IMG/VR virus record: IMGVR_UViG_3300011952_000033
From: a virus
Taxonomy: Duplodnaviria > Heunggongvirae > Uroviricota > Caudoviricetes
Reading direction: 5' to 3' (one strand)
DNA length: 4,335 bases
The notes below the pieces were generated by a model. It was not told the DNA's origin and did not search any database. It saw nothing but the letters and a program-made list of their open reading frames with translations. The translations under genes were made by a program, and so were the position numbers. This document shows, piece after piece, positions 1 through 4,335 of this stretch. Position 1 is the stretch's first letter; each line of letters begins with the position of its first letter.

Positions 1-60
1 TATTGGATCAATGAGTGAGTCAACATAATATTAAACTCACAATTATAAATCAGCCATATA

Positions 61-1518
61 TTAGGAGCGCCAAAAAAAACCTGAAAACAATATAATAACA
101 GGATAAATTTCAAGGCGACCAAGAATCATAGCTATGCACATTAAACATTTTGCAATGTCATTAAGCACTCCGAATGACGATGCAGTAGCCCCAAAACCTA
201 ATCCCATATTATTAATACATGCAGCCACTGTTGCAAATGATGTAAGAAAATCATATCCCATACCATTTAACACCAGTATAAAAAACGCCGTGAAGAGAGT
301 ATAAAGAAAAAAGAAACTCCATACAGACCTCATTACACGATCTGTAACTATCTTCCCTCCTACATTTACACTCAACAACGCTCTGGGATGAGAAAGCTGA
401 TTTATCTCGTGTTTGCTTTGTTTGAAAAGTATAAGAAATCGAAGTGACTTAATTCCACCACAAGTTGAACCTATACATCCCCCAAAGAAACTTGACAACA
501 GCAAAAACACTATCGTGTGCGTGGGCCAACTTGCATAATCCTGCGTAGCTAAACCATTATCAGTGAGCATGGAGCTGGCAAGAAAAAACGAATGAATAAA
601 ACTTCCATGCAAGTCATACATACCTATATGCCAGACCTGGAAAGAGGTAACAATGATCACCCCTAAGGCTATTAACAGAAAGAAACGAAGTTCAATATCT
701 CTGATTAAAGGTTTTATCGTTTTCCTGCTAATAACAATATACCAAAGAGTGAAGTTGAAAGCCGATAGCAGGGAAAAAGAACCAGCCACCAGCTCAACCA
801 AATAGTTATTAAAATATCCGATACTCTCGCTATGAGTTGAGAAACCACCAAGCGAAACTGTGGAAATCCCGTGACAAATAGCATCAAACAAAGGCATTCC
901 TGCAAGTCTATAACAGACAATACAAGCAATACCTAATAAAGAATAAGTTATCCACAGTGTCCGTGACGTATCGGCCAGGCGGGGAGTGAGTTTGTCATCC
1001 TTAAATGGCCCCGGCATTTCTGACTGATAAAGCTTTGCACCACCAATACCCAATAATGGCAATACAGCAACCGCCAGAACAATAACTCCTAAACCACCTA
1101 TAAAATTTAACTGTGACCGATAGTACAAATATGCCCGAGGTAATGAACTAACATCATCAATTACAGTTGCTCCTGTTGTTGTTATTCCAGAAACCCCTTC
1201 AAACAGAGCATCAATGAACGTTAAATTAAGTTCTGAGTCAATCCATAAAGGGAATGCACTAATAACAGAAAACAAAATCCAAAACATTACAATTATAATA
1301 AACCCATCACGGGTACGTAATTGAATGCCAGATTTCTTAGTTGTATACCACGCTCCGCCACCAATGCAAAAAAATATAACGAAAGTTATAAAGAAAACGA
1401 ACAGGCTTTTTTCTTTATAAAACAATGCTACAACCATTGGTGGCAACATTGAAAGACTATAGAGCCAAACCAGGAACCCACACATATGAGTAACAACTCT
1501 TACATGAGATGTATTCAT
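61..1518 (-). CDS. trkG: Trk-system potassium uptake protein TrkG (TrkH/KtrB superfamily)
   Basis: Long ORF 61..1536 (track start is TTG). Translation is a polytopic membrane protein with four glycine-containing pore-loop segments typical of TrkH/KtrB (GITTTGATV, STVSLGGFS, LTDNGLATQ, NNMGLGFG). N-terminus from the ATG at 1516-1518 (MNTSHVRVVTHMCGF...) matches my recollection of E. coli Rac-prophage TrkG (485 aa). Alternative TTG start at 1534-1536 is preceded by AAGGTGG (plus 1543-1549). Confidence 0.9.
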   Translation of the reverse strand: MNTSHVRVVTHMCGFLVWLYSLSMLPPMVVALFYKEKSLFVFFITFVIFFCIGGGAWYTTKKSGIQLRTRDGFIIIVMFWILFSVISAFPLWIDSELNLTFIDALFEGVSGITTTGATVIDDVSSLPRAYLYYRSQLNFIGGLGVIVLAVAVLPLLGIGGAKLYQSEMPGPFKDDKLTPRLADTSRTLWITYSLLGIACIVCYRLAGMPLFDAICHGISTVSLGGFSTHSESIGYFNNYLVELVAGSFSLLSAFNFTLWYIVISRKTIKPLIRDIELRFFLLIALGVIIVTSFQVWHIGMYDLHGSFIHSFFLASSMLTDNGLATQDYASWPTHTIVFLLLSSFFGGCIGSTCGGIKSLRFLILFKQSKHEINQLSHPRALLSVNVGGKIVTDRVMRSVWSFFFLYTLFTAFFILVLNGMGYDFLTSFATVAACINNMGLGFGATASSFGVLNDIAKCLMCIAMILGRLEIYPVIILFSGFFWRS

Positions 1519-1655
1519 ATCTAAATATTCTTTCAATTATAACCACCTTGCTGCAATATTATGATTATACTGTATAAAATTTAACTCCTCTTAGATCTTA
1601 CTTCACTGTTCCTTATGAAACAATCATCAAAATGAATCATATTGTAGTTAAGATT

Positions 1656-2120
1656 TTACTTTAAACACTGCTCGGTTATGTATTGCTGAGCACCTTCAAG
1701 TTGGGCCTGCATCATTACCAGTCGTTCCCGGAGGGTGAAATAATCCCGTTCAGCGGTGTCTGCCAGTCGGGGGGAGGCTGCATTATCCACGCCGGAGGCG
1801 GTGGTGGCTTCACGCACTGACTGACAGACTGCTTTGATGTGCAACCGACGACGACCAGCGGCAACATCATCACGCAGAGCATCATTTTCAGCTTTCGCAT
1901 TAGCTAACTCCTTCGTGTATTTTTCATCCAGTGCAGCAACATCACGCTGGCGCATCTGCATGTCAGTAATTGCCGCGTTCGCCAGCTTCAGTTCTCTGGC
2001 ATTTTTGTCGCGCTGGGCTTTGTAGGTAATGGCGTTATCACGGTAATGATTAACAGCCCATGACAGGCAGACGATGATGCAGATAACCAGAGCGGAGATA
2101 ATCGCGGTTACTCTGTTCAT
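1656..2120 (-). CDS. Rz: Rz i-spanin (inner-membrane spanin subunit)
   Basis: ORF 1656..2132 (track start is GTG). From the ATG at 2118-2120 the product ([55 protein letters not shown]...) is near-identical to lambda Rz as recalled: N-terminal TMD plus coiled-coil periplasmic domain. Start overlaps the R stop as ATGA. Stop TAA at 1656-1658. Confidence 0.9.
1715..1900 (-). CDS. Rz1: Rz1 o-spanin (outer-membrane lipoprotein spanin subunit), embedded in +1 frame of Rz
   Basis: 61-aa ORF wholly inside Rz in a different frame; ATG at 1898-1900. Signal peptide with lipobox ([20 protein letters not shown], then T at +2), proline-rich PPPPP segment. Near-identical to lambda Rz1 as recalled. Confidence 0.9.
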
Positions 2121-2614
2121 TGCTGACCCCACAAACAGATTTCACGCTCAATCTCACGACGAGTCATGAGACCTTTCCATTGCTTACCGCCAGCATATGT
2201 CCAGCGACGTAGCTGATCACATGCGCCTTTGATATCGCCCTGGTTTATTTTGCGAAGAAGCGTCGATGTTCTGAAATTGCCAGCGCCCACGTTGTAAACG
2301 AACGAGTAAAGAGCGCCGCGCGTTGTTTCCGGTATATCGACTTTGATGTACGGGTTAATTTGTCTGGCGACCGTGGCAAGGTCTTTATTCAAGAGTGTTT
2401 TGCATTCTGCTTTGGTATACGTTTTACCGAGCATGATGTCTTTTCCTGTATGCCCGTGACATACAGTCCATACACCAACAATATCTTTGTATGGTATGTA
2501 GCTGACACCTTCCAGACCATCGTTACCACTTGGGCCAGTGATTAACACTGATGCTATAGCAATTGCTCCGCCACCAATAGCAGCAGCAACGACTTTTCGT
2601 AATGATGGAGGCAT
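2117..2614 (-). CDS. R: SAR endolysin (phage-21 R-type lysozyme, GH24 family)
   Basis: 165-aa ORF, ATG at 2612-2614. N-terminal weakly hydrophobic Gly/Ala-rich signal-arrest-release segment ([20 protein letters not shown]) followed by a lysozyme domain ([25 protein letters not shown]...). Essentially matches phage 21 R as recalled. Start overlaps S stop (TAATG). Confidence 0.9.
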
Positions 2615-2829
2615 TATTCACCTCTCGCAGCCTTGCGCTTATCTTCTTTAATCTTGAAATAAAGGTTTGTCAGGTACGTCAGCAGGCCAAATACCAGACT
2701 ACCCAGCACACCGATTGCAGCCCACTGTGACGGAGTTACTCTATCGAGCAACTGTAAAAACCAGTAGCCGGCACTGCCTGCGGAGGTGCCGTAGGCAATG
2801 CCTGTTGAAATTTTGTCCATGGATTTCAT
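2614..2829 (-). CDS. S: Pinholin / antiholin, phage-21 S-type with dual start (71-aa form from Met1 at 2827-2829; 68-aa form from Met4 at 2818-2820)
   Basis: Track ORF 2614..2886 starts at an upstream GTG, but the ATG at 2827-2829 is preceded by GGAGGTGAGG (SD). From there the product is [71 protein letters not shown]: two TMDs and a charged C-terminus, matching phage 21 S (S71/S68 dual-start MKSM motif) as recalled. Stop TAA at 2614-2616. Confidence 0.9.
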
Positions 2830-2928
2830 AGCCTCACCTCCGCACGGAACGGATGGCATAGTTATTATGTGTAGGCTTTCAGACACATCAATCAGAGCCT
2901 TAATTGATATATATGCTGGAGACGATGC

Positions 2929-2955
2929 AATATAAAAAGCTCGCCGTAGCGAGCT
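2929..2955 (-). terminator. Rho-independent terminator between lipoprotein genes and holin
   Basis: On the minus strand: AGCTCGC-TACG-GCGAGCT (perfect 7-bp GC-rich stem, 4-nt loop; plus 2938-2955) immediately followed by TTTTATATT (plus 2929-2937). On the plus strand the hairpin is followed by an A-rich run, so it is oriented for minus-strand transcripts. Confidence 0.6.
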
Positions 2956-3080
2956 AATAAAATGTATTTCTCTGATATTATGTTTATTTGTATTAGCTCA
3001 GACTTGACATCACAGGTTTCGTATATAGAACATCATCAAATCTGTCAGTTTGCTATGAATGAGATATAGTAATTGAAGAG

Positions 3081-3476
3081 CTAACCTCGCATGTCAAAGC
3101 CAGATTTCTGAAAATCTCTGTAGACTTCCGGATTGTTGAAGGCCGGAAATTTGGCTTTATGAGCTGCGGACTTTATCGCTTCGCAATAGGCTTTATCACC
3201 GTTACTGGTAGATATTTTTAACGCCGTGCCATCCTGAGAGAATTCCATATGCAACCTGCATTTTTTCCCTTTCCAGTTATGCGGCTCATCAAGTTTGGCA
3301 TTAATTGCAGCTCTGATTCCCCGCGCTTGCGCCCCCCATTCATCCTGATCATCCCAGCGTCCTGAACTGCAACTACCTGTAGCAGTAGTTTTGTGGCAAT
3401 CTGAAGGGTGTAAAGGTGTGCATCCCGCAACAAAACCGACCCAAAAAGTCAACATAACGATTTTCTTTAATCCCAC
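3081..3476 (-). CDS. Putative outer-membrane lipoprotein with divergent TolA-C-terminal-domain-like region (paralog of the 3627-4055 gene)
   Basis: 131-aa ORF. GTG start at 3474-3476 preceded by GAGGAG at 6-nt spacing (plus 3484-3489). Signal peptide with lipobox MGLKKIVMLTFWVGFVAGC, T at +2. The C-terminal approx. 85 aa (GKKCRLHMEFSQDGTALKISTSNGDKAYCEAIKSAAHKAKFPAFNNPEVYRDFQ) share the motif skeleton and two conserved Cys with the neighbouring gene and with TolA domain III. Stop TAG at 3081-3083. Start codon choice (GTG vs internal ATG at M8) is uncertain. Confidence 0.75.
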   Translation of the reverse strand: MGLKKIVMLTFWVGFVAGCTPLHPSDCHKTTATGSCSSGRWDDQDEWGAQARGIRAAINAKLDEPHNWKGKKCRLHMEFSQDGTALKISTSNGDKAYCEAIKSAAHKAKFPAFNNPEVYRDFQKSGFDMRG

Positions 3477-3626
3477 TTCTTGCTCCTCAATCCATTAAAA
3501 TCTCAGCAATAGTAGTTGTTACGTCCGCCACTGGCTCAGAGCTGACTATCCGCTAAATTTAGCTCAGTGCCGTAGCTGTGTCAGAACAAACCTAAGCCGA
3601 AACCGTTTATTACAAAACAATAAATA

Positions 3627-4055
3627 TCAGGGTTTAAAATCCAGCACCCCATTTTGAAATACTTTATATACTTCCGGCGAAGGGGGGGCAGGTATATCAG
3701 CATTCTTTATCGCATTCATCGCTTCACGACATAAATCGAGGTCTCCACTTTCTCTTTTAACCTCCAGTAGAAGGCCATTCGGGGCCATATGCATTCTCAG
3801 TGTACACTCTTTTCCTGAATACTTACTCGCATCCCCGAACTGTTTTTCGATGGCGCTCTTGATTTGATGGGCATACAGACGGATATCCTCACTAACATCA
3901 GAAGTACGTTCAGATGAACTCACATACTGTGTCTCTATTGCTTTATCGGAGTAATATGATGTACGGTCATGATAATTTGTCGATACAGCATCAGTGCACC
4001 CGATAATAATCCCACTAATAATCAACGTAAGAATTGATGCGCTACGAAAACCCAT
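3627..4055 (-). CDS. Putative outer-membrane lipoprotein with TolA domain III-like C-terminal domain (TolA mimic)
   Basis: 142-aa ORF. ATG at 4053-4055 preceded by GAGGA (plus 4059-4063). Signal peptide with lipobox MGFRSASILTLIISGIIIGC, T at +2, then a Ser/Thr/Tyr-rich acidic linker. C-terminal approx. 83 aa (YAHQIKSAIEKQFGDASKYSGKECTLRMHMAPNGLLLEVKRESGDLDLCREAMNAIKNADIPAPPSPEVYKVFQNGVLDFKP) align without gaps to my recollection of E. coli TolA C-terminus (YAGQIKSAIESKFYDASSYAGKTCTLRIKLAPDGMLLDIKPEGGDPALCQAALAAAKLAKIPKPPSQAVYEVFKNAPLDFKP), roughly 60 percent identical by eye, both Cys conserved. Confidence 0.85.
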   Translation of the reverse strand: MGFRSASILTLIISGIIIGCTDAVSTNYHDRTSYYSDKAIETQYVSSSERTSDVSEDIRLYAHQIKSAIEKQFGDASKYSGKECTLRMHMAPNGLLLEVKRESGDLDLCREAMNAIKNADIPAPPSPEVYKVFQNGVLDFKP

Positions 4056-4084
4056 TTTTCCTCACATATGTCATATAGTAAAGG

Positions 4085-4114
4085 ATTATATATACCGTTG
4101 TTTTGGACGCTCAA
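4085..4114 (-). promoter_or_regulatory. Candidate sigma70 promoter for the lipoprotein pair
   Basis: Minus strand reads TTGAGC (plus 4109-4114), 18-nt spacer, TATAAT (plus 4085-4090); alternatively TATATA with a 16-nt spacer. It sits about 30 nt upstream of the lipoprotein ATG at 4055 in an AT-rich context. Sequence-only prediction. Confidence 0.4.
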
Positions 4115-4172
4115 ACAGCGAATCAGATCAAATAAAACGCACATTTGTTAACATTTACACAAAGTCTGCGTG

Positions 4173-4193
4173 GGATATTCTGAAAGAATATCC
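4173..4193. promoter_or_regulatory. Perfect 9-3-9 inverted repeat GGATATTCT-GAA-AGAATATCC, candidate operator or RNA hairpin
   Basis: Read directly from sequence at 4173-4193. No flanking U-tract on either strand, so not a canonical intrinsic terminator. Lies about 60-85 bp upstream of the candidate -35. Confidence 0.35.
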
Positions 4194-4335
4194 ATAATGT
4201 GGAGAGAATCTATTGAAGTGCATGGTGCCGGGTGCCTCCCGGTGCTCTGGCCGAACTGGCAAACTCCAGAGCGGTGACCTTTAGACTCCGAGCATCGCAC
4301 GATAGTTACGATGCCAGTTCTCCGCGTGCGCTAGC

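Follow-up and report, generated by a model that had tools for sequence, protein, structure and literature searches.

An intact phage-21-type lysis cassette next to trkG in a probable Rac-type lambdoid prophage

The 4,335-nucleotide viral sequence IMGVR_UViG_3300011952_000033, referred to here in its full length as the window, carries on its minus strand, between positions 1656 and 2829, what is very probably an ordinary and intact set of lysis genes belonging to a lambdoid prophage of the Rac type, comprised of a pinholin (S), a signal-anchor-release (SAR) endolysin (R) and the spanin gene Rz with Rz1 embedded in it. The evidence comprises gene integrity, motifs, synteny, the frequency of the arrangement in Escherichia coli and purifying selection, all of which were observed directly. 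An earlier reading, made from the sequence only, had described an apparently intact, phage-21-type cassette adjoining trkG, and this description was confirmed: S, R, Rz and Rz1 are uninterrupted, match the respective protein families and contain the expected motifs. On the minus strand, the stop codon of Rz ends at position 1656 and the start codon of the 71-residue form of S (S71) begins at position 2829, so that the coordinates of the cassette are exact. Read from right to left on the minus strand, the window contains part of an STnc100-like element, two TolA-like open reading frames (ORFs), a hairpin, S, R, Rz with Rz1, and trkG.

The canonical start and stop overlaps proposed in the sequence-only reading were borne out, with 1 nt shared between S and R (TAATG) and 4 nt between R and Rz (ATGA), the same geometry as in the annotated genome of phage 21 (OL657228). 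Shine–Dalgarno-like sequences precede all four starts: GGAGGTGAGG for S, GAGAGGTG for R, GGGG for Rz and AAGGAG for Rz1. The integrity of the genes was checked by global alignment to phage 21 (OL657228), lambda, the DLP12 prophage of K-12 and phage mEp332, and no frameshift or premature stop was found in these alignments. The Pfam matches lie far beyond chance (PF04971, 2.1e-35; PF00959, 1.8e-45; PF03245, 5.8e-53; PF06085, 2e-19), and PHROGs agrees with Pfam, returning holin, endolysin and Rz-like spanin, the last for both Rz and Rz1. In NCBIfam, no model matched S, Rz or Rz1, and for R there were only equivalog models, with scores well under the respective cutoffs.

S (2614–2829, minus strand) is a class II holin, or pinholin, of the phage 21 type, 71 amino acids long, and scores well above the curated threshold of the Pfam family “Bacteriophage P21 holin S” (PF04971; 120.9 bits, with a cutoff of 26). 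Its N-terminus, MKSMDK, contains the dual-start motif M1-K2-S3-M4, identical to that of S21. The second start, M4 at position 2820, gives a 68-residue product (2614–2820). By its sequence, M1 is predicted to start the 71-residue form, which in phage 21 acts as antiholin, whereas the 68-residue holin would start at M4. The region of the first transmembrane domain (residues 1–26) is identical to that of S21, and the second transmembrane domain is the sole strongly hydrophobic segment, covered by windows starting at residues 34–40.

R (2117–2614, minus strand) is a SAR endolysin of 165 amino acids, a muramidase of the GH24, or T4-lysozyme, type (PF00959, 154.8 bits), which carries the catalytic Glu-Asp-Thr triad at E35, D44 and T50. 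Its N-terminus has the basic residues R6 and K7, followed by a hydrophobic stretch rich in Gly, Ala and Ser (55% over residues 8–27), in which A8V is the sole difference from R21. Along its entire length, R matched proteins of solved structure (4ZPU, RrrD, 9e-111; 3HDE, 3e-110). The search output labels 3HDE and 3HDF just “Lysozyme”, and we take them to be the phage 21 endolysin.

Rz (1656–2120, minus strand) encodes the inner-membrane spanin subunit, or i-spanin, of 154 amino acids (PF03245, 178.9 bits; PHROG 13, Rz-like spanin, over the full length), with an N-terminal hydrophobic anchor (KD17 maximum 2.88) and cysteines at positions 99 and 152. Rz1 (1715–1900, minus strand) lies wholly within Rz in the +1 frame and encodes the outer-membrane lipoprotein, or o-spanin, of 61 amino acids (PF06085, 69.5 bits). 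Its lipobox, VVGC, places the lipidated cysteine at Cys20, followed by Thr-Ser at +2 and +3, with no Asp at +2, and 10 of the 42 mature residues are proline. Cys29 of Rz1, like Cys99 and Cys152 of Rz, is found as in lambda. Each of the four proteins has exact matches in public collections: three (including S and Rz1) on at least 1000 contigs each, and the Rz variant on 157.

The sequence-only reading had also described the lysis genes as nearly identical to those of phage 21 and lambda, which holds only in part. It is true of R with respect to phage 21 (97.8% DNA and 98.2% protein identity), less so of Rz (91.8% DNA, 91.6% protein) and Rz1 (95.7% DNA, 93.4% protein), and not of S (80.1% DNA, 90.1% protein). 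Near identity to lambda was not found for S or R, which are of unrelated types there (19% global identity for R). Lambda can serve as a reference for Rz and Rz1 only (92.9% and 91.8% protein identity, respectively), because its S and R are different protein types. The differences of Rz and Rz1 from the references are concentrated in the segment 1656–1730, which alters residues 135–154 of Rz and the last 4–5 residues of Rz1 together; this segment is a Rac-specific allele, identical to that of K-12 RzoR. Ratios of nonsynonymous to synonymous substitution (dN/dS; Nei–Gojobori) against phage 21 and lambda were 0.11 for R, 0.15–0.21 for Rz and 0.03 for S, the last being approximate because dS is near saturation (1.99), which detracts somewhat from the argument for S. 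Of the two explanations that had been suggested for the high identity, recent acquisition or purifying selection, the range of 0.03–0.21 supports the latter.

The frequency of the arrangement was determined in 5,426 complete E. coli genomes, with presence defined as at least 80% query coverage. Since the query for the cassette ran from inside trkG to the start of S, this coverage could be reached by trkG-linked full cassettes alone. trkG was found in 1,539 genomes (28%), plasmid-borne in 15 places, and the full cassette stood beside it in 698 of these, corresponding to ≈45% of the trkG-carrying genomes and ≈13% of all complete genomes. The whole window was covered in 441 genomes, at best with 99.8% identity over positions 1–4244. 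Also seen at the locus were the deletion known from K-12 and a mosaic that carries another endolysin in place of R, up to the start of Rz. Two Rz alleles occur among the trkG-linked cassettes, with ≈95% and 99–100% protein identity to that of the window, while Rz1 is 98–100% identical in both. In other genomes, the cassette genes carry the PGAP names essD, rrrD and rzpD/lysis protein. The trkG-linked full cassette is a major and probably the ancestral state of the locus, from which the Rac prophage of K-12 was derived by deletion.

The account of K-12 given in the sequence-only reading was correct: trkG in MG1655 is flanked by rzoR and an rzpR pseudogene, and neither S nor R was detected in the MG1655 Rac region by tblastn. 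The K-12 Rac locus (L002) matches the window over positions 1–2100 only, with 99.3% DNA identity; its Rz1 (RzoR) and TrkG are both 100% identical in protein to those of the window. The order in K-12 Rac (Rz/Rz1, trkG, ynaK) is also that of the window as far as the window reaches, ynaK lying beyond its edge. Alignment of K-12 to a full-size locus (L010) revealed a clean deletion of L010 positions 2766–11955 (9,190 bp), with an overlap of 2 nt at the joint, which falls at window position 2100/2101 (L002 15201–15202) and connects ydaW (DUF1627) to Rz ≈20 nt past its start, at about codon 7. Lost in the deletion are a DUF977 gene, cargo genes, the DUF1367-YbcO-DUF1133 genes (the DUF1133 gene having a weak likeness to Q), the STnc100 element, the two TolA-like genes, S and R, as well as the initial 20 nt of Rz. 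K-12 retains more of Rz than the annotation of a 300-bp rzpR pseudogene suggests, since residues 8–154 align unbroken.

These observations also address an alternative origin, in which a deleted Rac of the K-12 type regained its lysis genes by recombining with a phage of the phage 21 or DLP12 type. Lambdoid phages are mosaic, R is 98% identical to that of both phage 21 and DLP12, and 12 of the 15 positions at which the window differs from K-12 Rac fall within 1901–2075, the part of Rz upstream of Rz1, a clustering that suggests allele exchange within Rz. Against this, DNA identity in S reaches only 80% with phage 21 and 90% with DLP12, the 3′ end of Rz and Rz1 represent the Rac-specific allele rather than that of phage 21 or DLP12, and, in addition to the lysis genes, both TolA-like genes and the 3′ portion of STnc100 are present with 99.8% identity to full-size Rac-type prophages. 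The K-12 state, moreover, is a single 9.2-kb deletion present in a subset of genomes. Such a repair is therefore most improbable, and the recent acquisition considered in the sequence-only reading is unnecessary, because the full cassette is the major, probably ancestral state.

The window was also thought to represent a less decayed state than K-12 Rac, and this is supported by the genomes that are 99.8% identical to it over positions 1–4244, which carry the surrounding phage genes. In one of these, JCKP02 (locus L001), the late genes include tail gene J, the tape measure gene, a P22-type capsid protein gene, portal-region genes, both terminase subunits and a ynaK fragment, together with trkG and the cassette, and a Q-like gene, the immunity region, sieB, kilR and recET are also present. 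In full-size relatives, trkG lies between Rz and a ParB-like gene followed by the terminase genes, a position typical of cargo genes. Rac-like prophages of O157 keep their replication machinery and can infect other strains (PMC4632033), and full-sized Rac-like prophages are described in a letter of 2018 (PMC5917428). KingRac, a 46.8-kb Rac-like phage integrated at ttcA, is mitomycin-inducible and forms particles, and it displaces the defective Rac of K-12 in the mouse gut (PMC6731689). KingRac thus exemplifies that full-size Rac-type phages can be active, the comparison being made at the level of the Rac type. Since full-size and active Rac-like phages have been published, a less decayed, possibly active Rac-like prophage is an established idea.

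A different possibility is that a defective prophage still harbours the intact genes in a stranded state, as DLP12 does in K-12, and that they are either silent or kept for a role in the host, such as envelope turnover, biofilm lysis or vesicle release. Many trkG-linked loci are indeed decayed. In one (L007), everything beyond ynaK, and with it the structural genes, has been lost; another (L015), which retains ttcA, the integration site in K-12, followed by int, xis, recT and recE, has an IS3 insertion sequence (IS) inside R and IS1 and IS5 elsewhere; and further loci (H9–H13 and H21) also carry IS insertions. The DLP12 prophage, which is annotated as cryptic, keeps an intact cassette 90–98% identical to the present one, and the unusual right-hand junction of the window, described below, could mean that the late control region is disrupted. 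By contrast, in 8 of the 10 loci retrieved with a TolA-like protein of the window, as in JCKP02, the Q-like, packaging and head genes are in place around the same cassette. The purifying selection measured relative to free phages fits equally well with selection that acted on the lysis genes in the gene pool of phages rather than in the present host. We consider the stranded state a possibility, though clearly the less likely one, and prefer an intact lysis module of a Rac-type prophage.

If the module functions as its relatives do, late transcription after induction, antiterminated by a Q-type protein, would enter from the right and proceed through the TolA-like genes and the terminator into S, R and Rz/Rz1. 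The subsequent steps are those of phage 21 and lambda lysis. By analogy with these phages, R would be exported by Sec and tethered in an inactive form in the inner membrane via its Gly/Ala-rich SAR domain. S68 would build up, delayed by the S71 antiholin, and then trigger, forming small pinholes and depolarizing the membrane. Depolarization would free and activate R, leading to degradation of the peptidoglycan, and a periplasm-spanning complex of Rz and Rz1 would complete lysis by fusing the inner and outer membranes. Several points weigh against reading the window as a working lysis module. The expression of the cassette, its timing and the actual lysis are inferred from the better-known systems; neither the late promoter nor the Q gene falls within the window; some of the related loci, among which full-size ones also occur, are decayed, with an IS in R or the structural genes lost; and the right end of the window (4223–4335), which bears on the upstream late control region, departs from every complete E. 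coli genome.

trkG (61–1518, minus strand), which encodes a Trk-family K+ transporter (PF02386, 1.2e-144), lies immediately downstream of the cassette and has a G+C content of 38%, compared with 47–51% for the lysis genes. On the other side are two TolA-like genes, and both these and trkG resemble cargo (“moron”) genes inserted to either side of the lysis genes. The TolA-like genes, arranged in tandem as a cargo unit that has the STnc100 element on one side and S on the other, encode predicted lipoproteins: one at 3081–3476 (minus strand; 131 amino acids from a GTG start or 124 from an ATG; PF06519, 1.3e-14; lipobox VAGC) and one at 3627–4055 (minus strand; 142 amino acids; PF06519, 2.4e-23; lipobox IIGC). 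Both belong to PHROG 5772, a group of unknown function, and the identity between them is only 29%. In each, the C-terminal ≈85 residues match structures of TolA domain III, with E-values of ≈5e-9 for the 3081–3476 product and ≈5e-28 for the 3627–4055 product. TolA domain III is bound by group A colicins, by the g3p protein of Ff phages and by TolB, and one may speculate that the TolA-like lipoproteins have a decoy or exclusion role. PADLOC returned no match for the TolA-like proteins or TrkG, and nothing specific on prophage-encoded TolA-domain proteins was found in the literature. In JCKP02, PGAP calls the gene for the 142-residue protein (L001 23627–23887) a partial tolA pseudogene, “missing N-terminus”. 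By tblastn, the ORF is complete there and 100% identical, and since it was compared with full-length TolA, the pseudogene call looks like an annotation artefact.

A terminator-like hairpin with a T-run (2938–2955, minus strand) stands between the TolA-like genes and S and was the only such site found in 1500–4335. It would mark the end of the cargo transcription unit and be read through by antiterminated late transcription. A promoter-like site just upstream of S (2891–2864), matching at 9 of 12 positions, was dropped, as the scan gave 10 sites of this kind where chance alone would give 6.4 ± 2.2.

The right end of the window is occupied by part of an STnc100-like prophage small RNA (sRNA) or leader element (4166–4335, minus strand; RF02076, 30.9 bits, E = 5e-4), which is cut at its 5′ end by the window edge. 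STnc100 is a known prophage-associated sRNA family, and STnc100-like elements are frequent in prophage regions. The homologous place in JCKP02 is occupied by a full STnc100 element (RF02076, 86.6 bits), from which, as from other full-size Rac-type prophages, the last ≈90 bases of the window diverge. The window retains the E. coli-type 3′ half of the element and switches to a Pantoea-type 5′ half at a conserved core of 22 nt, CACCGGGAGGCACCCGGCACCA (≈4223–4244), and positions 4223–4335 (113 nt) are 99% identical to Pantoea latae (NZ_MWUE01000022.1; L003). P. latae was the sole match when the right part alone was searched against GTDB representative genomes; blastn of 4230–4335 against the complete E. 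coli genomes gave no match, and the right-end sequence is in none of 16 related loci that were fetched. In a phage collection, matches were limited to one for the E. coli-type half, in mEp460, and a weak one in a Pantoea phage. An exact look-up of a 50-residue ORF spanning the junction gave no record. The possibility that 4245–4335 is the terminus of an insertion sequence or of a group II intron was rejected, since Rfam and the alignment show it to be a variant STnc100 element. In P. latae (L003, 1–6700), the STnc100-like variant is located among the C-terminal part of an integrase gene, a small AlpA-like gene and a LexA/cI-type repressor gene, and hence also resides in a mobile element or prophage; Rfam gave nothing above the gathering score at that locus.

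The junction may have arisen naturally, as the mosaic joint of a rare recombinant, or in the course of assembly. Under the latter explanation, which concerns only the right end, a short or chimeric contig would have had 4223–4335 joined artificially via the 22-nt repeat. Searches for the junction gave 0 matches in IMG/VR and 0 in the JGI metagenomes, neither the 5,426 complete E. coli genomes nor the representative genomes of GTDB contain it, the switch falls in a core common to both variants, and, STnc100-like elements being frequent in prophages, a single genome could hold several copies. Conversely, natural lambdoid mosaics arise by recombination at just such conserved cores. An artificial join thus deserves consideration, but a tentative one. 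Either way, the junction leaves 1656–2829 untouched.

A more far-reaching interpretation is that the cassette is kept intact in ≈45% of trkG-carrying E. coli by selection at the level of the host, as a domesticated module for lysis or envelope remodelling that is co-inherited with trkG and the TolA-domain lipoproteins even where no particles are produced, and that it has here perhaps also been rewired to a Pantoea-type STnc100 late-leader module unseen in complete E. coli genomes. We regard this as improbable. The cassette is a well-known and already annotated lysis module of a common prophage type; NCBI annotates its genes in hundreds of genomes, and it belongs to one of the best-studied types of phage lysis system. 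Its importance beyond correct annotation is therefore small. By-products of the analysis are the estimate of how frequent the intact state is among trkG-positive complete genomes (698/1,539), the exact account of the loss in K-12 Rac as one 9,190-bp deletion, and a pointer to two uncharacterised TolA-domain lipoprotein genes carried as cargo.

Among known systems, phage 21 (OL657228) has the same gene order, overlaps of 1 and 4 nt, an MKSM dual start, an endolysin with the E35/D44/T50 triad and an embedded Rz1, and its annotation designates S21-71 as antiholin and S21-68 as holin. It differs by 7 substitutions in S and by the other allele at Rz residues 135–154 and the end of Rz1. The flanks are also distinct, with tRNA genes upstream and bor downstream in phage 21, compared to the TolA-like genes upstream and trkG downstream in the window. 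The essD-rrrD-rzpD/rzoD genes of DLP12 in K-12 constitute a cassette of the same type, with protein identities of 94% (S), 98% (R), 90% (Rz) and 92% (Rz1). DLP12 is nevertheless a distinct prophage, in which nmpC lies upstream and borD downstream and in which Rz and Rz1 have other C-terminal ends than in the window. Phage mEp332, for which the record lists K-12 MG1655 as host, has 4 conservative differences in S (67 of 71 residues identical) and 2 in R. The closest phage records reach 97% DNA identity over the cassette, as does vB_EcoS-683R6, a prophage-derived GenBank record in which the genes follow the same order of S, R, Rz, trkG, ParB and terminase.

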